A DNA stretch of 18,127 nucleotides from a virus (IMGVR_UViG_3300043464_001836:96002-114128); one strand, 5' to 3'; positions 2-18,127 are shown, numbered from the stretch's first letter. Program-made: numbers and translations. Notes: generated by a model from the letters alone, not told the origin.

Positions 2-1183
2 AAACTATCTAATTATATACGCAGCAAACTTAACCCCGCTCAAGCCTTGATAGCTCAAGATGAAGGGAGTTCTATATACCCTGAGCCTTCATATAACTAC
101 GCACAAGCATATGATAACGTACCAGTTGTTCGTAGAGCTGTAGACTTGATCGTTAACGGTGCTGCTAGTTTCAACGTTGATGTTACAGAGAAACTACCTA
201 TCACAGCCGTAGTTAATAATATTCGTAAAACTAAAGTAAATACTCTTTTAAATTACCAACCAAATCTTTATATAGACATACACAAGTTCCGTAGGCTACT
301 ATACACTGACCTAGTTCTAGAAGGTAATGCCTTTATTTACTGGGATGGTGCTTACTTATATGTTCTTCCCGCAGCCAACGTAGAGATTTTAACAGACCAA
401 CTGACTTACGTCAAGGGTTATAAATATGGTGGTACCACTACTTTCCTACCTAGCGAGATTATTCACATCTGTGATAACTCAGCTACATCAATCTATAGTG
501 GAACTAGTAGGTTAAAGTCTACAGCTGATAGTATTAATACTCGCGCTAGTATGCTATCCTTCCAGGCAAACTTCTTCAAGAATGGGGCTGTGCCAGGACT
601 AGTACTTGTTTCTGAGAATGTACTCGGAGATAAAGTTAAGGCTCGCATGGTGGAGAGCTGGTCACGTGAGTATAGCCCAAATAAAGGTGCCAAACGGCCT
701 ATTATTCTAGATGGCGGTTTGAAGCTTGATAAGGTTTCAGACGTAAACTTCCGCGAATTGGACTTCGAGGCCTCTATTACTCTCAAGGAGAAACAAATTC
801 TAGTATCTCTAGGTGTACCAGAGATACTATTAAACTCGGGTAATAATGCCAACCTCCAACCTAACCTACGTTTATTCTATCTAGAGACTGTACTACCCCT
901 AGTAACTATGGTTAATAGCGCACTAGAACGTTTTCTGGGCTATAATCTTGCCCATGAAGCAAGTAGAGTCTCAGCACTACAACCAGAGATGCGAGATTCA
1001 GCCAGCTATTACTCTACTCTAGTAAATGGAGGAGTTCTAGCTCCCAACGAGGCTAGAACGGAACTACGCTACCCACCAAAGCCAGACGCAGATGAACTGC
1101 GAGTACCTGCAAATATAGCAGGCTCAGCGGCAGGCGCAGCACCGGGCGAGGGAGCCCCCAAGAAAGATGAACAAAACCCTTAA
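2..1183 (+). CDS. Portal protein, T5 pb7-like (HK97-family portal); 5' end lies outside the window
   Basis: The frame is open from base 2 (KLSNYIRSKLNPAQALIAQD), upstream of the TTG at 47. KLNPAQ matches the recalled T5 portal N-terminus KLNPGQ. Further T5-portal-like motifs: FRRLLYTDLVLEGNAFIYWDG, IILDGG, GVPEILLNSGNNANLQPNLRLFY, LVNGGVLAPNEAR, RVPANIAGSA. Confidence 0.95.
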   Translation, partial: KLSNYIRSKLNPAQALIAQDEGSSIYPEPSYNYAQAYDNVPVVRRAVDLIVNGAASFNVDVTEKLPITAVVNNIRKTKVNTLLNYQPNLYIDIHKFRRLLYTDLVLEGNAFIYWDGAYLYVLPAANVEILTDQLTYVKGYKYGGTTTFLPSEIIHICDNSATSIYSGTSRLKSTADSINTRASMLSFQANFFKNGAVPGLVLVSENVLGDKVKARMVESWSREYSPNKGAKRPIILDGGLKLDKVSDVNFRELDFEASITLKEKQILVSLGVPEILLNSGNNANLQPNLRLFYLETVLPLVTMVNSALERFLGYNLAHEASRVSALQPEMRDSASYYSTLVNGGVLAPNEARTELRYPPKPDADELRVPANIAGSAAGAAPGEGAPKKDEQNP

Positions 1184-3038
1184 ACTAGTAGCAAACTTCG
1201 AGATTAAAGCCCTAGAGGATAATAACGATGATAATGTACAGGACCGAGAGGAACTATACATTACAGGATACGCCAACACTACTGATAAGGATAGAGTTGG
1301 TGATGTAGTACTAGCGGAAGCTTGGCAGAAAGGCGGCCTAGATAACTTTAGAGCTAACCCTATTATTCTAGCTTACCACGATCACAGCAAACCAATCGGC
1401 CTAGCTACAGAACTTTCAGTAGACCCCAAAGGGTTGAAGATCACAGCTCGTATTTCTAAAGCATCTGAAGAAATCTACCAACTAATCAAAGAAGGTATCC
1501 TAAAAGCATTTAGTGTTTCCTTCTACACGAAGGATGCGGACTACGACAGTACTTCTAGCATCTTTGTAATTAAAGACCTAGAGTTGCTAGAAATTAGTGT
1601 GGTCTCTGTGCCTGCTAATCAGTATTCAATCTTCTCCGTTGCTAAGTCTTTTGAAGACCAAGAGCAATACTTAGAATTTAAAAAGCAGTTTACCCCAATC
1701 CTCACAAATACGGAAGCTCAAGATACAGATCTTGCTAATTCATCTAGTGAGAAAGAAAATGAAGGAATCATTACTATGGATAAAGAACAAATTGACAAAC
1801 TAGTTGCTGAAGCTACTAACGCTGCTGCTGTAGCTGCTGTTGCTAAGGGAATCGAACTTGGCAAATCCGGCGCCGAGCGCCTACTTGCCGATGCTGAAAA
1901 GCGCCTACAAGACGTCGAAGCTACTAACCTAAAAGCTGTTGACGACCTACGTGCTGCTCTAGCAGAAAAAGCCACTGAAATCGAAGCTCTACAAAAGAGC
2001 AAGATTCAGTTCCAAGAAAAAGCCGCGGGTGACCAAGTTACCTATCAAGAGAAAGAGTCTGCCGTTCTACTAGCTAAGGCTGTTAACAAGGGCCTAACCG
2101 CTACTGGTCTATATCAGGGCCTAGTACAGAAGTACGGTGCTCATATCCCTAGTGCTACTTGGGAACTAGAAGTATCTACTAACATGCAGGACGAAATTCG
2201 TCGCGCTCTTATTCTTGACCCGATCTTTAATAAGAACATTAGCATGAATAACCCTGTTATGCGTCTACCTGTAAACCCTGAAGCTGGTTATGCCAACTGG
2301 GTACTAGAAAGTGGCTACAAAGCAGCTACATCTAGTGGTACCGCACAAGACCACGTGCTTAAGGAAATCAACCTAACAGCATATAAGCTAGCTACCAAAG
2401 AGTTCCTTGGTACGGAAGAAGAGGATGATAGTATTGTTCCCCTTCTACCAATCATCCGTGATGCTATTGTTAGACGTACTGCTAAAGCATGGGACAAAGC
2501 GCTTCTACGTGGCGCAGGTGCTGGATCTGACCCTATCAAGGGCATTATCACAACTGCTAATACCACACTATACACAACTGCTGGTGGTGAACAGGTTCAG
2601 CTAGCCGTAGCTTCTAAAGCCACTGTTGCTCACCTACTATCCATGCGTCGTGCCCTAGGTACCCGTGGTCTTAATCCTAGCGAGCTAGTATACATCGTTT
2701 CTAACGAAGTTTACTACGACCTACTAGAAGACACTAACTTCCAAACTATGGATAAGGTTGGCACTCGTGCTACCCTACTAAGCGGTCAGATTGGCTCTAT
2801 TGCTAATACTCCGGTTATCCTAAGTGGTGAGTTCGAAGCTAAGGCTGCTACGAAATTCGGGGCTGTCGTAGTTAATCAAAATAATTTCCTAGTTGGTCGC
2901 TATAAGGGTCTACGTGTTGAGTCTGATTACTCCGTTGAGAATCAGCAACGTCTAATCGTAGCTTCCCAACGTGTTGGCTTCCAACAAATCTCCAGTGTTG
3001 AAGGTTCTGGAGTCTGTAGCTTCAAGTGGATTGCTTAA
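1167..3038 (+). CDS. Prohead protease (HK97/T5 pb11 type) fused to major capsid protein (T5 pb8-like), 623 aa
   Basis: aa ~30-175 carry protease motifs: ITGYANT..KDRVGDVV, NPIILAYHDH (His), LKAFSVSF (Ser), KDLELLEISVVSVPANQ. aa 204-623 give a coiled-coil scaffold (delta) domain, then an HK97-fold capsid with T5 pb8-like AYKLATKEFLGTEEEDDSIVPLLPIIR and YYDLLED. There is no stop codon between the two parts. Confidence 0.95.
   Translation: MNKTLKLVANFEIKALEDNNDDNVQDREELYITGYANTTDKDRVGDVVLAEAWQKGGLDNFRANPIILAYHDHSKPIGLATELSVDPKGLKITARISKASEEIYQLIKEGILKAFSVSFYTKDADYDSTSSIFVIKDLELLEISVVSVPANQYSIFSVAKSFEDQEQYLEFKKQFTPILTNTEAQDTDLANSSSEKENEGIITMDKEQIDKLVAEATNAAAVAAVAKGIELGKSGAERLLADAEKRLQDVEATNLKAVDDLRAALAEKATEIEALQKSKIQFQEKAAGDQVTYQEKESAVLLAKAVNKGLTATGLYQGLVQKYGAHIPSATWELEVSTNMQDEIRRALILDPIFNKNISMNNPVMRLPVNPEAGYANWVLESGYKAATSSGTAQDHVLKEINLTAYKLATKEFLGTEEEDDSIVPLLPIIRDAIVRRTAKAWDKALLRGAGAGSDPIKGIITTANTTLYTTAGGEQVQLAVASKATVAHLLSMRRALGTRGLNPSELVYIVSNEVYYDLLEDTNFQTMDKVGTRATLLSGQIGSIANTPVILSGEFEAKAATKFGAVVVNQNNFLVGRYKGLRVESDYSVENQQRLIVASQRVGFQQISSVEGSGVCSFKWIA
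1776..3038 (+). CDS. Major capsid precursor translated from a probable internal in-frame start (M204, 420 aa)
   Basis: AAGGA at 1762-1766 lies 9 nt before an in-frame ATG at 1776 (MDKEQIDKLVAE). This is where a T5-type capsid gene would begin, just after a low-complexity linker. Confidence 0.7.
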   Translation: MDKEQIDKLVAEATNAAAVAAVAKGIELGKSGAERLLADAEKRLQDVEATNLKAVDDLRAALAEKATEIEALQKSKIQFQEKAAGDQVTYQEKESAVLLAKAVNKGLTATGLYQGLVQKYGAHIPSATWELEVSTNMQDEIRRALILDPIFNKNISMNNPVMRLPVNPEAGYANWVLESGYKAATSSGTAQDHVLKEINLTAYKLATKEFLGTEEEDDSIVPLLPIIRDAIVRRTAKAWDKALLRGAGAGSDPIKGIITTANTTLYTTAGGEQVQLAVASKATVAHLLSMRRALGTRGLNPSELVYIVSNEVYYDLLEDTNFQTMDKVGTRATLLSGQIGSIANTPVILSGEFEAKAATKFGAVVVNQNNFLVGRYKGLRVESDYSVENQQRLIVASQRVGFQQISSVEGSGVCSFKWIA

Positions 3039-3133: not shown

Positions 3134-3931
3134 ATGAATTTAAAAGAAGTACTAGAAGTCATATTTAAAGAGAATAAGTATGTTGTGCCTTATAATAAAA
3201 AAGGTATAACAGTAGATAAAGTAATAGATGGCTTATCTAAAGGTTTAGTTGGCTTAGAATTAGCCCAGCACTTAGGGTATGCAACAGCTGGAAAAGCATC
3301 TGTATTTTTAATTAAGCTATTTAACTCCCCCAAAGATAAAAAAGCATCTGAAAGATGGACAACTTATTTATTGAGTAAGAAAGAATTAAAAATTTGTTCT
3401 AGGTGTGGAAGTGTAGAGCCTTTTAGCTCCTTTCCAAAAAGAGCAAATCTTAACAATGGATTATTTACACAATGTTATACTTGTGTAAAAGAAGACCAGT
3501 CCTCAGAAGTATACAAAAGAGGGCGTAAGGAACGTAGAGCTAAGCTTTCAGAACAAGAACTAGAGACGTTGAAAGCTTACCATAGAGCATACTACATTAG
3601 AAATAGACAACAACTTCTATTAAAACAAGTAGAGTACGCTAAGCAACATAAACTAGATAAAAAGGTATACGACAGTATAAGGTTTGTAACAAATAGAGGT
3701 TACTTTAAAGCTAAAGCCGCAAAGTACAGAGCTAGCAGATTAAAAGCAACCCCAATTTGGGCAAACTTGGTAACTATAAAAGAAATTTACCAAACATGCC
3801 CAGAGGGGTATCATGTAGACCACATAGTTCCACTTCAAGGTAGTCTAGTATGTGGACTACACTGTGAGTTTAACCTACAACACCTATCAGCAACTGAAAA
3901 CCTAAGTAAAGGTAACAGGTGGGTACCTTAG
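3134..3931 (+). CDS. Free-standing HNH endonuclease (putative homing endonuclease) with zinc ribbon
   Basis: CxxC-x(23)-CxxC (CSRC...CYTC), then a basic helical region and the C-terminal phage HNH motif ATPIWAN...YHVDHIVPLQGSLVCGLHCEFNLQHLSATENLSKGN. SD GGAGG lies 10 nt upstream. Confidence 0.92.
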   Translation: MNLKEVLEVIFKENKYVVPYNKKGITVDKVIDGLSKGLVGLELAQHLGYATAGKASVFLIKLFNSPKDKKASERWTTYLLSKKELKICSRCGSVEPFSSFPKRANLNNGLFTQCYTCVKEDQSSEVYKRGRKERRAKLSEQELETLKAYHRAYYIRNRQQLLLKQVEYAKQHKLDKKVYDSIRFVTNRGYFKAKAAKYRASRLKATPIWANLVTIKEIYQTCPEGYHVDHIVPLQGSLVCGLHCEFNLQHLSATENLSKGNRWVP

Positions 3932-4003: not shown

Positions 4004-4027
4004 GGGAGCTTATAAGCTCCCATTTTT
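4004..4027 (+). terminator. Rho-independent terminator (probable capsid-operon terminator)
   Basis: Perfect palindrome GGGAGCT-TATA-AGCTCCC followed by ATTTTT. Confidence 0.8.
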
Positions 4028-4041
4028 GTATGGAGAAATAC

Positions 4042-4074
4042 ATGCTAAATATTAGAGCTAACCTATGGCTTTAA
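4042..4074 (+). CDS. 10-codon upstream mini-ORF MLNIRANLWL overlapping the start of the 1105-aa gene
   Basis: GGAG (4032-4035) lies 6 nt before ATG 4042. TAA at 4072-4074 is out of frame with ATG 4065. Not in the ORF track. Confidence 0.4.
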   Translation: MLNIRANLWL

Positions 4075-7000
4075 CCATAACAAGAACAATACTTTCTGGT
4101 GCGATTTACAAGATCGTCCTGCTGGGGTTTGTCGAAAGTGGTACTGCCAGCTCAGGAACACTAACTACACTAACGGACACTAGTAAGTCACGCACTGTTA
4201 ACGCAGATATCGGTAGATGTATTTTTATACATACTGGAACCGGTACAGGAGCTGTCGGATGGGTAAGTTCCAATACTGCTACAGTTTGGACGGTGGAGGC
4301 GTTTTACCTACCTGATTTCCAGGGTGGTGTTACAAAAATCACGCCGGACAACACCAGCCAATACGGGCTGTTGGGCACAGATGCCGATATTTATGCAGCA
4401 TCAGTTGCAGGTGGTTGGGGTGCCGTAACTCTAACCGGCAATACCTATTACTTCTCAGATTGCCTATATATTGGTGACGGCACAAATAAAACAGGAATTC
4501 AGTTTACTAACAATGCGCAGTTTGGCATCTATGGAACTCCGAGAGCCTTTGCCAGCGCAGCTAACACTGCTGTTGTTCTTGGGCGCAGAACCAAAACAAA
4601 GAGCACGAGAAACGGTGTAATACTGCTTGAGTATTGCACAAGGGCCGATTCATCGGCTGGTGGATACGGAGCTAACTTCGGTGCACAGTGGGACGACCTT
4701 GCAGGCTATGTGTACGTTTATGGTTCAACGCTGAAAAGCAAGTTGCACAATGTACCTGTCCCCAATACCCAATCAGCGGCATTTTACCTTCCATATAAGT
4801 TCGATTTTCTACAATCAAACGTTGACTCTGACGGTTTTGCATTGTTCAGTACAATACTTGGCTCTTTCTCTCGCTGCAACATCACGAACGGCCAGGGTCT
4901 TCCGCTACCTTTGTGGTTGTATTCGCCAAACGTTACTTTTGATGATGTAACTATTTACGCATCTTATCAAGGGTTACGGATTGCATATAACTATGATGGC
5001 GTACTGAAAAACTGTAATTTAATTGATAACACCTACCCTGTTCATCTTTACGGGGCAGTTAATGATTCATCAAAGTTCAGCGGCCTGCTTCGTCTGATAA
5101 ACACACAAGCTGACCTAACCGCGATTTTGGTAGACACCTATGTTACCGGGTCTATCCAGAAGGAATATGAGTGGGGGCTAAACGCTAATAATGGTACCAA
5201 CCCAATAGCGGGTGTCAAGGTATATGCTACAAATGCTAGTGGTACAGAAGTTGTAAATACTATTACTGATGCATACGGCAACATACCAACACAAAGTATC
5301 ATCGTTCAGAAACGTACAGGGTACGCTGGGTCACTAGTAAATCATGCACCACACACCTACGGCTTCAGAAAATATGGATACTTTTCTGATGGCGCCACAA
5401 AAACCCTGACTTCAAAAACTGATGATGGTGTAAAACTACGGGTTAATCCTTACGTTGTTGCTAGTGAAGCTACCGCAGCCGCAATGACTGGTATTACTGT
5501 TACTAGTAGTGCAACAAGCCTAAGTTCCTCACATAGTCTTCAAGACATTTATGACCGTGGGCAGTACCTATCACAGCAAAGTTTCATTACCGAACCATGG
5601 ACTACTTCTGATGGTATTACATTCGTTCAGTCTACTGGCCGGGTATTCACGCCAGGTTCTTATATAGACTGGGGAACTAGTAGACTAGTTGGTGGTACTG
5701 TTACTTTCGGTACACCTGGCCCGTTCTCCCCGCGCATTGGCACCATCACTGTGCGATTTACAGCCGCGGGCACATACGCTATGACGGATGCTGACTTTGG
5801 TGGGATTGTGACTTTTACTAATACTTCTGGGGGTGCAGTCACAGTTGAACTACCTGCTGGAATATCTTATGTAAACACCGGGCCAAGTGTCACCATTGTA
5901 GAACCCCAAACTTACCAAAGCGTCACCCTTACGGGTGGCATCACGGGTTCCAGGGTACAACTATATGACTTAACATCTAGTACAGAGGTGTACAATGCTA
6001 TACCTAGTAGCTGGCCATTTACTTGGACAGATAGTGTACCTTATATAGCAGATAGACAGATTAGACTTCGTGTAATGAGTCAACCTGGTACAACAGCAAC
6101 ACTACTTATAGACCAGGTTATTGGAACTGCTACAGGCACCTCTCCGGCTATATCATTTTTAGTTGGTCAGGTAGTGGATACTGTGTACAATACAAATGCT
6201 ATTGTTGGTTCAACTGTTACAGGCGTTGAAATTATTGATGGCACGTTACGAGTACAGGTATCTACTGGTACTATTACTTGGCAAGAGCTATATGCTTATG
6301 AAACGTACTGGCTATTCACCGAAGAAGGTATTAGAGACGAAGGTAGATTCGCCTTCGCACCTGACCCTTCTAACTATAAATGGTATGACTTTAAGTTAAA
6401 GAATACTATTAGCCCTTCTGCCCCTCTAGTAGTTTCAGGTGGATACGGAGTAGACGGAGATACTGGCACTTCTATAGCAATGATAGATACTACTGGCGGA
6501 ACTATTATTATGGCTGTAGACCATGTAGTAAATAATATAGTTACTGTTGGTGGCTCTAACATTATTACAGGGGATATCGCTGAAGTAACATCTAAGGTTC
6601 AAGCAGGTCTTACTGCCCAGGGTTACACTGTTACTAAGGCGGGCTACTTAGATGCCACTATTAGTTCCAGAGCTACTATAAGTGGTATTGAAACCTCTGC
6701 TGTACTAGCAAAAGAAGCTACAGTAGCCACAATTCCTACTAGTACTTTACTAAGTACAGATATAAGGCTTAATAATCTAGATACTACTATTAGTTCCAGA
6801 GCCACTGTAAGTGGTATCGAAAGTTCTACTGTACTGGCTAAAGAAGCTACAGTAGCTTCAATTCCTACTAGTACGCTATTAAGTACCGATGCAAGGCTTA
6901 ATAATCTAGATACTACTATTAGTTCTAGAGCTACTGTAAGTGGTATCGAAAGTTCTACTGTACTAGCTAAAGAAGCTACAGTAGCTTCAATTCCTACAGC

Positions 7001-7382
7001 TACGCTACTCAGTAATGACTCTAGACTTAATAACCTAGATGCTACTATTAGTTCCAGAGCTACTGTAAGCGGTATTGAGAGCTCTACTGTACTAGCAAAA
7101 GAAACCACAGTAGCTGCAATTCCTACTACTACACTGCTAAGTAGCGACTCTAGACTTAATAACCTAGATGCTAATATTAGTTCTATATTAGCTACAGATA
7201 TTGAAAGTGGTTTAACCTTGGGGGATATGTCCAAGATTATACTAGCAGCAGTAGTAGGCAAGACTGCTGGAGTAGGTTCTAGTACAGAAACTTACTTAGC
7301 CCAAGATGGTACTACTCAGCGTATAGTAGTAGGTTTTGATTCTGATAACAATAGAACTTCGGTAACTTTAGATGCGCAGTAA
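4065..7382 (+). CDS. Large virion-appendage (fibre/spike-like) protein, 1105 aa, multi-domain
   Basis: T/S/G-rich and beta-rich. It has an N-terminal SGTASSGT..TLTDTSKS...I.TGTG.G phage module, a beta-helix-like segment (SRCNITNG...FDDVTIY...VLKNCNLIDN), a transthyretin/carboxypeptidase-regulatory-like segment (PIAGVKVYATNASGTEVVNTITDAYG...FRKYGY), four 43-aa repeats and a 65-aa C-terminal module (ESGLTLGDMSKIILAAVVGK...RIVVGFDSDNNRTSVTLD) that I recognise from phage structural proteins. The function is inferred. Confidence 0.75.
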   Translation: MALTITRTILSGAIYKIVLLGFVESGTASSGTLTTLTDTSKSRTVNADIGRCIFIHTGTGTGAVGWVSSNTATVWTVEAFYLPDFQGGVTKITPDNTSQYGLLGTDADIYAASVAGGWGAVTLTGNTYYFSDCLYIGDGTNKTGIQFTNNAQFGIYGTPRAFASAANTAVVLGRRTKTKSTRNGVILLEYCTRADSSAGGYGANFGAQWDDLAGYVYVYGSTLKSKLHNVPVPNTQSAAFYLPYKFDFLQSNVDSDGFALFSTILGSFSRCNITNGQGLPLPLWLYSPNVTFDDVTIYASYQGLRIAYNYDGVLKNCNLIDNTYPVHLYGAVNDSSKFSGLLRLINTQADLTAILVDTYVTGSIQKEYEWGLNANNGTNPIAGVKVYATNASGTEVVNTITDAYGNIPTQSIIVQKRTGYAGSLVNHAPHTYGFRKYGYFSDGATKTLTSKTDDGVKLRVNPYVVASEATAAAMTGITVTSSATSLSSSHSLQDIYDRGQYLSQQSFITEPWTTSDGITFVQSTGRVFTPGSYIDWGTSRLVGGTVTFGTPGPFSPRIGTITVRFTAAGTYAMTDADFGGIVTFTNTSGGAVTVELPAGISYVNTGPSVTIVEPQTYQSVTLTGGITGSRVQLYDLTSSTEVYNAIPSSWPFTWTDSVPYIADRQIRLRVMSQPGTTATLLIDQVIGTATGTSPAISFLVGQVVDTVYNTNAIVGSTVTGVEIIDGTLRVQVSTGTITWQELYAYETYWLFTEEGIRDEGRFAFAPDPSNYKWYDFKLKNTISPSAPLVVSGGYGVDGDTGTSIAMIDTTGGTIIMAVDHVVNNIVTVGGSNIITGDIAEVTSKVQAGLTAQGYTVTKAGYLDATISSRATISGIETSAVLAKEATVATIPTSTLLSTDIRLNNLDTTISSRATVSGIESSTVLAKEATVASIPTSTLLSTDARLNNLDTTISSRATVSGIESSTVLAKEATVASIPTATLLSNDSRLNNLDATISSRATVSGIESSTVLAKETTVAAIPTTTLLSSDSRLNNLDANISSILATDIESGLTLGDMSKIILAAVVGKTAGVGSSTETYLAQDGTTQRIVVGFDSDNNRTSVTLDAQ
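6648..7184 (+). repeat. In-frame tandem repeat, 129 nt / 43 aa, 4 full copies plus a partial fifth
   Basis: Units start at 6648, 6777, 6906, 7035 and 7164 (partial). Consensus is LD(A/T)TISSRATVSGIESSTVLAKEATVASIPTSTLLSxDxRLNN. Confidence 0.97.
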
Positions 7383-7426
7383 ACTGTTTAGCTCAAGGAT
7401 ATTCAGAACTAAACTATTTTATACTA

Positions 7427-7458
7427 AGATAGTGGAGTTGCTTACTACTCCACTATCT
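7427..7458. repeat. 12-bp perfect inverted repeat in the intergenic gap after the fibre-like gene
   Basis: AGATAGTGGAGT-TGCTTACT-ACTCCACTATCT, with no U-tract on either strand. Confidence 0.85.
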
Positions 7459-7484
7459 AGAATAATTAAAGTTAGGAGATTTTA

Positions 7485-7598
7485 ATGTATAGAGTAATAC
7501 CTATTCAAAAAGAAAATAGACTAGTACCTATAAGTAAAGAAATTAGACTTATAACAGTGCATAAAGACACAAGAGTAGTTCCAGTTACACAAGGATAG
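7485..7598 (+). CDS. 37-aa peptide made of four 9-residue repeats (not in the ORF track)
   Basis: Strong SD AGGAG at 7474-7478 and ATG 7485. Sequence: MY-RVIPIQKEN-RLVPISKEI-RLITVHKDT-RVVPVTQG, TAG at 7596-7598. It fills the gap exactly, and its last codons contain the AAGGA SD of the next gene. Confidence 0.8.
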   Translation: MYRVIPIQKENRLVPISKEIRLITVHKDTRVVPVTQG

Positions 7599-7601
7599 TA
7601 C

Positions 7602-7907
7602 ATGAAATTCAAGAAAGACCCAAATGCTGTACTAGACTACTTAGTAGACTTCAAAGCTAAGACTAATAGTACGGGGGCAGAAGACTATTTACAGACTAGT
7701 GAAACTATTACTTCTGCTACTGTAGTAAGTTCGGCGCCTACAGACTTAGTAGTTGATAGTAGTACAGTAATTACTAATAATACATGCGTACTAATTTGGT
7801 TGTCTGGTGGAACACTAAATAATACGTACTCAATTAGAGTACGTATTGTAACCAGTCTAAACCGCACAGATGATAGAACTTTTCAAATACAGGTGGTAGA
7901 ACGATGA
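7602..7907 (+). CDS. Small phage structural beta-sandwich/adaptor-type protein (KDPxxxLDY family), 101 aa
   Basis: Motifs KDPNAVLDYLVDF, ETITSA, VLIWLSGGT..NTYSI..RIVTS..RTDDRTFQIQV match a widespread phage family encoded near head genes (recalled as Gp77-like/fibre adaptor; needs HMM confirmation). SD AAGGA at 7591-7595. Confidence 0.7.
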   Translation: MKFKKDPNAVLDYLVDFKAKTNSTGAEDYLQTSETITSATVVSSAPTDLVVDSSTVITNNTCVLIWLSGGTLNNTYSIRVRIVTSLNRTDDRTFQIQVVER

Positions 7908-8455
7908 GCTTACTGTTTGATCTAGATGAGTACAAGCTAGCCTCAGGAATTGTCAGCACAGATAAGGATGATAAACTAGAAGCTCTAGCAGCCAGCGTTA
8001 GTACTTTAGTAAAGTCATATTGTGCTAGGACTTTTGTTGACTACTTCACAACAGATAAAACCGAGTACTATAATGGTGGTAATACCACTTACGCACCAGA
8101 AGAGTTCCCTATAGTATCAATTACTTCTGCAGCTTATTCCAGTGATTATGGCCAGACATATACACCATTAGTAGTATATACAGACTATGTATTAGATAAC
8201 TCAAAAGATGTTATTATACTATTTAATGCTGATACTGTAGACTCACCAAATGCTTATAAATTAGTATATAAAGCGGGGTATAGCACTGTACCAGCGGACC
8301 TAAAATTAGCGTTATACGACTTAATGGATTATTATCTTAAGAAAGAGGCTACACCTAGAAAGAGTTCTGGTAGCGTATCTATTGAATATATTACTAACTC
8401 TGACTTCCCACCGCATATTAAGCGTATTCTAGACTTATATAGAGCTATACGATGA
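7904..8455 (+). CDS. Head completion / head-tail connector protein (T5 p144-like, HK97 gp6/SPP1 gp15 class)
   Basis: YKAGYSTVPADLKLALYDLMDYY and the C-terminal FPPHIKRILDLYR resemble T5 p144 (PEDLKLAA...IPEHIRTIIEVYR). Confidence 0.88.
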   Translation: MSLLFDLDEYKLASGIVSTDKDDKLEALAASVSTLVKSYCARTFVDYFTTDKTEYYNGGNTTYAPEEFPIVSITSAAYSSDYGQTYTPLVVYTDYVLDNSKDVIILFNADTVDSPNAYKLVYKAGYSTVPADLKLALYDLMDYYLKKEATPRKSSGSVSIEYITNSDFPPHIKRILDLYRAIR

Positions 8456-17159: not shown

Positions 17160-17501
17160 GTGGCACAAATATTTACTTGGGTACCTTCTACGGGTTTTAC
17201 TAAAGAAAGTCAACCAGAAGTAACCACTACCAAGTTTGGTAGTGGTTATTCACAAAGAATCAGATATGGTATAAATACTATTACGTCCTCTTGGAGTCTG
17301 AGCTTTGTTAACCAGCCAGTTGCAGTAGCTAACGCTATTATAGCTTTTCTTGAACTTCATGGAGGCGCAGAGTACTTTTTATTTCAACCTCCTGGGGAGT
17401 CCATCTACTATAAAATTATCTGCAGTACTTGGAATTTAGAGTATACTTCGCATATTAGTAGAACCGTAACAGCAACCTTTACTAGAGTATATGATATATG
17501 A
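17160..17501 (+). CDS. Distal tail protein, lambda gpM-like
   Basis: FTWVP, KFGSGYSQR..GIN, FLELHGG..YFLFQPP and C..W match lambda gpM (FRWKV..RFGDGYSQR..GLN..FLEEHGG..FLWTPP). GTG start with SD AAGGAGGT. Confidence 0.93.
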   Translation: MAQIFTWVPSTGFTKESQPEVTTTKFGSGYSQRIRYGINTITSSWSLSFVNQPVAVANAIIAFLELHGGAEYFLFQPPGESIYYKIICSTWNLEYTSHISRTVTATFTRVYDI

Positions 17502-18127
17502 TAATTAACGAAGTTTTATCAAGTTCACCAAGTCATATAGTAGACTTATTTGAGGCGGATTTTACATCTATTAGCTCAGTACCTATTGATACAGCAGGAA
17601 ATACTGTATTAAGATTCTTTAATGATATTAATGAGTTAGGTTCAGAACTGGTATGGGACGGAGATACATATACTAGGTACCCATTTGAACTATCTGGTAT
17701 TGAATGGAGTGGTGCAGGACTTCCTACACCTAAGTTAACACTAAGTAACATTGGGGGTCTATTAACAGCTCTTAACTTTAAGTACCAAGATTTACTTGGT
17801 CTAAAGGTAACTAGGTATAGAACTATGCTTAAGTATCTAGATGCTGTTAATTTCCCAGGTAATAGCAACCCAGAAGCTGACCCAACTGCTAGTTTTCCTA
17901 AAGAAGTATACTATATTGATAGGAAAGTACTAGAAAATAATAGTGTTGTAGAGTATGACTTAGTATCTGCGCTAGATATAAGCTCTATAAAGCTACCTAG
18001 AAGACTAATTATTCAGAATATGTGCCAGTGGCGATATAAAGATTCAAACTGTGGGTACATTCCAAGCGAGCATGGAAATAGAATGTCTACCTCTGAAGGG
18101 GTAGTAACAACTGACCCCCAACTGGAC
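17498..18127 (+). CDS. Tail tip protein, lambda gpL-like; runs off the window end (not in the ORF track)
   Basis: ATGA overlap with gpM and an open frame to the last base: MIINEVLSSSPSHIVDLFEADF...LVWDGDTYTRYPFELSGIEWSG.GLPTPKLTLSNIGG...KVTRYRTMLKYLDAVNFP.GN.EADPT...YYIDRK...LPRRLIIQNMCQWRYKDSNCGY. The last motif carries two of the gpL Fe-S-ligand cysteines. Confidence 0.95.
   Translation, partial: MIINEVLSSSPSHIVDLFEADFTSISSVPIDTAGNTVLRFFNDINELGSELVWDGDTYTRYPFELSGIEWSGAGLPTPKLTLSNIGGLLTALNFKYQDLLGLKVTRYRTMLKYLDAVNFPGNSNPEADPTASFPKEVYYIDRKVLENNSVVEYDLVSALDISSIKLPRRLIIQNMCQWRYKDSNCGYIPSEHGNRMSTSEGVVTTDPQLD

Follow-up and report, generated by a model that had tools for sequence, protein, structure and literature searches.

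The last 18 kb of a 114,128-bp virus record in IMG/VR (IMGVR_UViG_3300043464_001836, positions 96002-114128; the whole 18,127-nucleotide stretch that was analysed, hereafter the window) carry every gene on the + strand. Between the capsid and HNH endonuclease genes and a head completion gene lie three open reading frames (ORFs) that the original prediction had singled out as an appendage cassette inside the head-neck operon. All three were found where it had placed them:

4065-7382, + strand: 1105-amino-acid (aa) multidomain protein, fibre- or tailspike-like according to the ORF call and fold searches
7485-7598, + strand: 37-aa peptide, putative 'rope tail' segment, consisting of Met-Tyr and four nonamers of the pattern x-R-h-h-x-h-x-x-[E/D]
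7602-7907, + strand: 101-aa immunoglobulin (Ig)-like collar/fibre adaptor (PF23148, GP4 gp77 family) according to Pfam, PDB and fold matches

The 101-aa protein is, judged by its sequence and its modelled fold, a confident member of the GP4 gp77 family of Ig-like adaptors. It scored 68.7 bits (cut-off 27) against the Pfam family PF23148, 'Podophage GP4 fiber-tail adaptor protein gp77', over profile positions 1-84 of 84, and matched the PDB chain 8jou_D by sequence with an E-value of 8.5e-5. The AlphaFold2 (AF2) model of the domain had a predicted local distance difference test score (pLDDT) of about 97. Foldseek matched this model to 8jou_B with a template modelling (TM) score of 0.83, and the Bas63 collar chain 9mt4_G was also among the matches. 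With VIA, the match to 8jou_B reached a Z score of 12.7 and a root-mean-square deviation (rmsd) of 1.3 Å, with 88 of 89 residues aligned at 27% identity, three Z units above the runner-up, the Milano collar protein gp13 (Z 9.7). At E ≤ 1e-3, the gp77-like family has 866 representatives, which range over podophages, the 130-kb phage Lacusarx and many actinophages. Four gp77-like proteins (P0141, P0144, P0147 and P0177) have C-terminal fusions to the Ig domain, either Cys-rich and ~380 aa long or a domain of ~150 aa; neither domain matches Pfam, and these proteins may represent collar-connector or collar-fibre fusions.

Fibre-holding neck collars have been solved only recently, in podophage GP4 (PDB 8JOU; Zheng et al. 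2023, cited in PMC11445570 and PMC12609058) and in myophage Bas63 (JohannRWettstein; PDB 9MT4; PMC12609058), and the latter paper also says that Sf14 has a complex similar to the Bas63 collar-whisker. According to PMC11445570, a ring of 15 gp77 copies surrounds the dodecameric head-to-tail adaptor of GP4 and carries three sets of fibres. The Bas63 collar is an Ig 12-mer at the interface between adaptor and head completion protein, with whisker dimers threaded on an N-terminal 'rope' extension of the collar itself; the GP4 rope is a separate protein (PMC12609058). Related ropes are found in VP1 and A1002 (PMC13730344).

The 37-aa ORF has an AGGAG 6 nt ahead of its own ATG and is the sole ORF carrying the nonamer motif in the 114-kb genome; its four 9-residue units agree with its earlier description as a repeat peptide. 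Relative to a 94%-identical relative (L002), it has four synonymous and two non-synonymous codon differences, and both amino-acid changes fall at variable positions of the repeat. Nonamers of the same kind form the extreme C terminus of the protein encoded directly upstream of the gp77-like gene in five unrelated phages (the marine podo-like contig L004, Sphingobium phage Lacusarx with gp194, DSL-LC06, Pseudomonas phage Itty13 and Burkholderia phage DC1), and GP4 gp79 has two units near its C terminus. In the metagenomic proteins P0133, P0232 and P0224, nonamers are fused straight onto the N terminus of the Ig domain, those of P0133 being nearly identical to the units in the window; these fused forms came from an exhaustive search, and a word-index search for longer Ig forms found none. 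Among 17 lineages, 5 had runs of at least three in-register nonamers beside the Ig domain, compared with a background rate of about 0.4% in 45-aa windows, a contrast whose effect size counts more than its exact figure, as the scoring rule was set after examples had been seen. The adjacent and the fused forms together constitute a Rosetta-stone argument for a physical partnership of nonamer segment and Ig domain. By sequence, the 37-aa peptide is homologous to the nonamer segment found at rope C termini or directly before the Ig domain in other phages, and would represent an orphaned collar-docking segment of a rope of the GP4/Bas63 type. We infer that in GP4, too, the nonamer segment is the part that interlocks with the collar. 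Sequence searches of the PDB with the 37-aa peptide, the L004 rope-like protein, GP4 gp79 and GP4 gp78 returned no match, and the identity of the GP4 rope protein could not be confirmed by sequence from the deposited PDB chains. The two homologies, of the 101-aa protein to the gp77 family and of the 37-aa peptide to rope nonamers, support the earlier proposal that the two small proteins form the mount of the appendage.

The 37-aa and 101-aa ORFs share one frame and are split only by a TAG and a single Tyr codon (window 7596-7604). If the TAG were read as a residue, the product would be a 140-aa nonamer-Ig protein with an architecture like that of the natural fusions and the Bas63 collar. The AF2 model of this fused reading showed a confident Ig domain, with the first nonamer as a strand at residues 3-7 (pLDDT about 70). 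L004 has the same layout of stop, one codon and ATG, with TAA as its stop, and no suppressor tRNA for TAG was found among the 14 tRNAs of the phage. We therefore read the junction as translational coupling and not as read-through.

The 1105-aa protein is divided as follows:

4122-4388, + strand (aa 20-108): small N-terminal β-domain, mapped by BLASTP and common to proteins that differ downstream
4362-5348, + strand (aa about 100-428): right-handed β-helix predicted by VIA, candidate polysaccharide lyase/hydrolase, exchanged in P0004
5154-5450, + strand (aa 364-462): transthyretin/carboxypeptidase-regulatory-like β-sandwich, predicted by VIA and Foldseek
5502-6554, + strand (aa 480-830): conserved β-rich module, pLDDT above 85
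6649-7183, + strand (aa about 862-1040): 129-nt (43-aa) tandem repeat, putative stalk, 4.1 copies with 86% matches
7179-7379, + strand (aa 1039-1105): C-terminal module of 65-70 aa with two helices and then three strands, recognized by a hidden Markov model (HMM) and mobile between fibres

This arrangement bears out the predicted order of a β-helix-like part near the N terminus, a repeat stalk and a recurring C-terminal module, and models suggest that the protein is a tailspike-type β-helix fibre with a repeat stalk, in which the β-helix is a candidate of low model confidence. The protein has 124 homologues, all without names, and a PDB sequence search with it found no match. Its AF2 model had a mean pLDDT of 70.5, with residues 20-110 and 360-820 confident, and BFVD matched it, among others, to a Synechococcus phage Syn5 structural protein (E 1e-16) and to proteins of the tail-fibre or pectate-lyase kind. 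The N-domain (pLDDT about 87-94) is present at 13 viral loci and resembled the C-terminal domain of the Acinetobacter phage Solidus tailspike (VIA Z 10.5). Residues ~100-428, modelled at pLDDT 42-70, matched AlgG, PL6 alginate lyases, pectate lyases and the Pam1, APK16 and HK620 tailspikes with VIA Z of 10-11, and the Pfam Beta_helix profile scored 23.5 bits (E 4.7e-5), under its cut-off of 25.9. The sandwich at residues 364-462 gave VIA Z of 9-10, with rmsd of 1.8-2.4 Å over 76-88 residues, and a Foldseek probability of 1.0. Residues 614-822 are the stretch most widely common to other proteins, many of which share that part alone. Homologues of the fibre modules belong to tail-fibre clusters in L013 and L023, and the β-rich module homologue in L023 lies downstream of a gpJ-like tail protein. 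The 43-aa repeat was modelled as a monomer at low confidence with short helices, and similar repeats occur in many homologues.

The fibre protein is a mosaic. The C-module HMM matched the extreme C terminus of nine proteins that differ otherwise (P0004, P0009, P0010, P0011, P0031, P0032, P0041, P0063 and P0096), and the module is missing from P0002 and P0003. P0002, the closest homologue of the fibre (70% identity over 970 aa), has another C-terminal tip in place of the 65-aa module, and there are therefore at least two interchangeable end modules among close relatives; the alternative tip, shared by P0002 and P0006, ends in G-T-G-x-E-S-D-P-W. In P0004 the N-domain and the part from residue 427 to the end are retained, with a different β-helix between them. 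P0003, at locus L010, lies where the window has its fibre, between capsid and connector genes, and shares the N-domain without the C-module. Between the capsid gene and this fibre gene, L010 has a 478-aa ORF (L010:7831-9267), which by eye we take to resemble a two-domain glycosyltransferase. Searches with the C-module and the head completion protein as queries yielded no new viral loci, two metagenome scans and a viral scan with P0002 gave marginal matches only, and an Atlas look-up of the C-module returned solely unnamed viral clusters.

The features that surround the cassette are:

1167-3038, + strand: protease-capsid fusion gene, upstream of the cassette
3134-3931, + strand: HNH endonuclease gene, between the capsid fusion and the fibre gene
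4004-4021, + strand: terminator-like hairpin with T-run between the HNH and fibre genes, with a 7-bp stem containing five GC pairs, then ATTTTTGT
7419-7465, + strand: strong hairpin without U-tract, 3' of the fibre gene, with an 11-bp core (7428-7438 / 7447-7457)
7904-8455, + strand: head completion/head-tail adaptor gene (PF24163, E 8e-17; phrog_442 head-tail adaptor), joined to the 101-aa gene by an ATGA overlap; presumed seat of the collar

The capsid and HNH genes thus lie upstream of the cassette, and the stop of the 101-aa ORF overlaps the start of the head completion gene as ATGA (7904-7907), both as originally described. In the window, the portal gene is followed by the protease-major capsid fusion, the HNH endonuclease and the three ORFs; then come the head completion gene, a T5 p143-like tail completion gene and the tail terminator gene, and further on the tube protein, chaperones, a 1731-aa tape measure and lambda-type gpM and gpL. 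Head completion, p143-like tail completion and tail terminator (PF24163, PF25747 and PF23818) stand in T5 order, as in a T5-like head-neck module. The nearest cultured relatives of the tail terminator are from T5-like Vibrio, Escherichia and Salmonella phages, at ~40% identity, and megablast of the window found no nucleotide match to any cultured phage. In the T5-like Vibrio phage D239, the head-tail adaptor gene begins 63 nt after the major head gene with nothing between, in agreement with the earlier statement that T5 has no such genes here. Compared with this layout, the HNH gene and the three ORFs (~4.9 kb) therefore appear as an insertion, and the cassette is by sequence an insertion relative to this cultured T5-like phage. 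The Peptidase_S78 prohead protease and the major capsid protein form a single 623-codon ORF (1167-3038) in the window and are separate genes in D239.

The tail locus goes on at the start of the record, where a 2620-aa gpJ-like central fibre is followed by three more tail proteins, and the tail-tip genes (M, L, the 2620-aa J and the three additional tail proteins) are thus encoded away from the cassette. This lambda-like tail tip comprises gpM, gpL, the gpJ-like protein with its Phage_Tail_Tip domain and tail proteins of 693, 601 and 614 aa (G000:C1:1385-15008, locus L025, together with window positions 17160-18127). The virion plan is a mosaic, with a lambda-like tail tip and a T5-like neck and tube in the same genome.

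The fibre gene is flanked by the terminator-like hairpin upstream and a very stable hairpin downstream. The latter has a folding energy of -20.7 kcal/mol (z -4.9), which 0 of 200 shuffles reached; it is kept in L002 and was not scored as a terminator in the terminator call. The two hairpins could tune how much fibre is made in proportion to the neck proteins. A second, overlapping 37-aa ORF at 7372-7485, which spans the downstream hairpin, is most likely noise.

Comparison with known systems places the small proteins closest to GP4 and Bas63. The Ig adaptor is homologous to that of GP4 by sequence and fold, and in the GP4-like phages Itty13 and DC1 the gene directly upstream of the Ig gene encodes a rope-like protein with these nonamers at its end. 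Unlike GP4, however, the virion encoded here would be a T5-like siphophage, the genome lacks a Fiber-1 homologue and a rope body, the nonamers form a free 37-aa peptide, and the neighbouring fibre is a 1105-aa predicted β-helix protein unrelated to the GP4 fibres. The Bas63 rope precedes the Ig domain, just as the nonamers precede the Ig protein here, but it is part of the collar protein and bears small whisker dimers, whereas the window has two ORFs and no whisker gene. The Milano collar gp13, a 15-mer (PMC10491603), and the N-terminal collar domain of Pseudomonas phage DEV gp53 (PMC11445570) are likewise β-sandwich neck collars. The Milano collar differs in being four-ringed, disulfide-linked and fibreless, and the DEV collar domain in belonging to the fibre chain; both lack a nonamer peptide. 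In the model of the DEV authors, the 15-mer collar is linked to five trimeric long fibres (PMC11445570), which by analogy suggests a way in which a trimeric fibre could be mounted here. The tailspike depolymerases of HK620, CBA120 (TSP2), Acinetobacter APK phages and Pam1 have a right-handed β-helix similar in size to the candidate one of the large protein (VIA Z about 10), which lies within a virion structural operon, but here about 700 extra residues, the repeat stalk and the mobile C-module follow the candidate β-helix. T4 fibritin (wac), XM1 gp40 and the lactococcal neck passage structure and R7M whiskers show that fibres can emanate from the head-tail junction, and neck whiskers of siphophages have been seen by electron microscopy (PMC8265664); these are, however, single-protein coiled-coil whiskers or structures whose genes are not identified, and no sequence or fold relation to them was found. 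The Lacusarx paper makes no mention of collars or fibres.

The original prediction looked to co-occurrence of the three families across genomes, and on this point it fared less well: there is no fixed triad, and gp77-like genes are usually accompanied by a rope and Fiber-1 and not by a fibre of the 1105-aa type. A gp80-like Fiber-1 accompanies the gp77-like gene in GP4, Itty13, DC1, L004, DSL-LC06, Lacusarx, Faith1, GodonK and Mae-JY22, and most of these loci also carry a rope-like protein. An HMM built from six Fiber-1 homologues matched in 10 gp77 loci and did not match any Fiber-1 or whisker protein (gp80-like, about 140 aa) in this genome, even at E ≤ 10; the canonical set of Fiber-1, rope and Ig was counted at 10 loci. 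A rope body is likewise absent from the genome: the nonamer segment stands alone, the 1105-aa protein has no rope-like body, and its gene is parted from the 37-aa gene by 100 nt and the hairpin. Of the marks of a chain-like fibre system, the locus thus has the nonamer segment beside the Ig domain and has neither Fiber-1 nor a rope with serial docking sites. BLASTP of the fibre against proteins encoded downstream of gp77-like genes revealed no similarity. Fibre and Ig genes are adjacent here and in L002, and P0004 (fibre) and P0276 (Ig, 68% identity) are each recorded on one 10,593-bp Logan contig, probably the same one. Several gp80-like Fiber-1 proteins bear other labels: those of Faith1 and Lacusarx are called 'head protein', and that of Burkholderia phage DC1 'major capsid protein'; the proteins with such labels (L005:1777-2199, L007:5349-5735, L006:5912-6340 and L029:1208-1627) look like mis-annotated subunits of a chain fibre.

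We favour, with a probability of roughly 55%, the reading that the three genes specify a neck collar together with an accessory fibre and were inserted into a T5-like head-neck operon. The neck position is proposed because the family holds this position in three solved virions, because the Ig gene is coupled to the head completion gene and because the tail tip has a separate locus. The Ig protein would ring the connector in 12 or 15 copies, at the head completion protein whose gene overlaps its own, and the 37-aa peptide would lay short β-strands on the Ig subunits, interlocking or completing the ring, a role that the rope has in GP4 and Bas63. The free peptide is best explained as what is left of a rope gene after the large fibre gene had displaced its body and its partner Fiber-1. 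In the simplest history, a rope-and-Fiber-1 module would have been cut down to its collar-docking tail, the trimmed tail would have gained its own start codon, and the large fibre gene would have taken the place of the rope body. That the nonamers were kept points to a need for them in the Ig ring. Given the gene arrangement, it is plausible that the large fibre sits on the collar; probably trimeric, it would be displayed there as a second, glycan-directed reach beside the lambda-like tail tip. We lean to docking of the fibre by its N-terminal β-domain, with about an even chance in our estimate, over docking by its C-terminal module, which seems rather unlikely.

Several observations weigh against a fibre-bearing collar. 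Support for a place of any of the three proteins in the virion or at the neck is indirect, and gp77-like genes of actinophages sit among 'minor tail' genes, so that family membership leaves the location unfixed. No gp77-like gene lies within 10 kb at any of the 13 loci that share the fibre N-domain, and L010 has the fibre homologue P0003 with no gp77-like gene nearby. Homology of the fibre N-domain to the conserved N-terminal domain of the GP4, DC1 and Itty13 fibres was rejected (hhalign probability 1%). Most of the peptide was modelled at a pLDDT of 54-66 in the fused reading, the nonamer scoring rule was chosen after the fact, and collars without fibres exist, as in Milano (PMC10491603). Collar and fibre could be unrelated neighbours, the Ig ring and the 37-aa staple serving as a fibreless reinforcement of the neck and the fibre being mounted on the capsid as a head fibre or on the tail as a side fibre, which we take seriously although we think it less likely. 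The L010 homologue in the same slot, the use of fibre modules in the tail-fibre clusters of L013 and L023, and the terminator-like site and strong hairpin that bracket the fibre gene like a self-contained unit all fit such an arrangement, as does the fact that decoration and head-fibre genes commonly sit just after the capsid gene; the fibreless Milano collar offers a precedent (PMC10491603). However, holding fibres is the function given for the GP4 adaptor in the account of PMC11445570, the fibre adjoins the Ig gene here, in L002 and probably on the P0004/P0276 contig, and the tail-tip fibres already have a locus of their own.

Two further explanations concern how the parts fit together. The fibre may be inverted, as the original prediction had it, with the C-terminal 65-aa module docked on the mount and possibly gripping the 37-aa peptide, the repeats setting the reach and an exchangeable β-helix at the distal end. 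Ropes are anchored by their C-terminal nonamers and have their globular part N-terminal (PMC12609058), and the gene order of fibre, nonamers and Ig parallels that of rope body, nonamers and Ig. P0004 keeps the C-terminal half and the C-module and swaps the β-helix, and genomes with a known or suspected C-module also carry the Ig gene (the window, L002 and P0004/P0276), with P0003 lacking both. Yet the closest homologue, P0002, has a different C-terminal tip, the L010 homologue P0003 shares the N-domain and not the C-module, the module occurs on many otherwise different proteins in the manner of a mobile tip or folding nucleus, the loci retrieved with it belong to the window's own lineage only, and phage fibres usually attach by the N terminus; we regard inversion as unlikely. 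A related proposal seems slightly less doubtful and is still speculative: the 37-aa peptide as a free connector that staples the Ig ring and may tether the fibre by its C-module, with inverted polarity, fibres exchangeable without touching the collar genes, and the nonamer as a portable 'plug' for gp77-type collars in podo-, myo- and siphophages. Alternatively, the 37-aa ORF might have no independent product, being a decaying stump of a rope or collar extension, or an N-terminal extension made by TAG read-through to give a 140-aa rope-Ig protein like that of Bas63. The common frame of the two ORFs, with TAG and one codon between them, and the natural fused forms speak for this, as do the N-terminal rope extension of the Bas63 collar (PMC12609058) and the folding of the fused reading without clashes; moreover, the evidence for selection comes from a single close relative (L002). 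Nonetheless, the ORF has its own AGGAG-ATG, the tRNA set holds no suppressor, the TAA layout of L004 fits ordinary translational coupling, and the nonamer pattern is intact in 4 of 4 units with both L002 changes at variable positions, and we judge this explanation improbable. The collar with accessory fibre remains our preferred reading.

The principle of collar and rope is already known from GP4 and Bas63, the Bas63 paper citing Sf14 as well, with related ropes in VP1 and A1002. The original prediction's remark that no such module had been characterised does not hold as worded, GP4 and Bas63 having been solved and A1002 having related ropes; it stands in that none was found on a siphophage or T5-like virion. 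We found no description of a gp77-type adaptor in a T5-like siphophage, of the nonamer signature as a conserved element beside the Ig domain, of nonamers standing alone as a 37-aa mini-protein where rope and Fiber-1 are absent, or of the nonamer/Ig pair combined with a depolymerase-type fibre. The locus indicates that a T5-like siphophage has acquired a gp77-type Ig adaptor beside a fibre of the depolymerase type. Across very different phages, nonamers of the form x-R-h-h-x-h-x-x-E/D directly before an Ig gene or domain appear to mark a docking segment, and this signature may serve as a rule by which hundreds of unnamed genes, now 'minor tail' or 'hypothetical', could be annotated. The 37-aa peptide allows one to ask how short a docking element may be, and nonamer and Ig domain together are a candidate plug and socket by which foreign fibres could be mounted on phage necks in laboratory work on host range.

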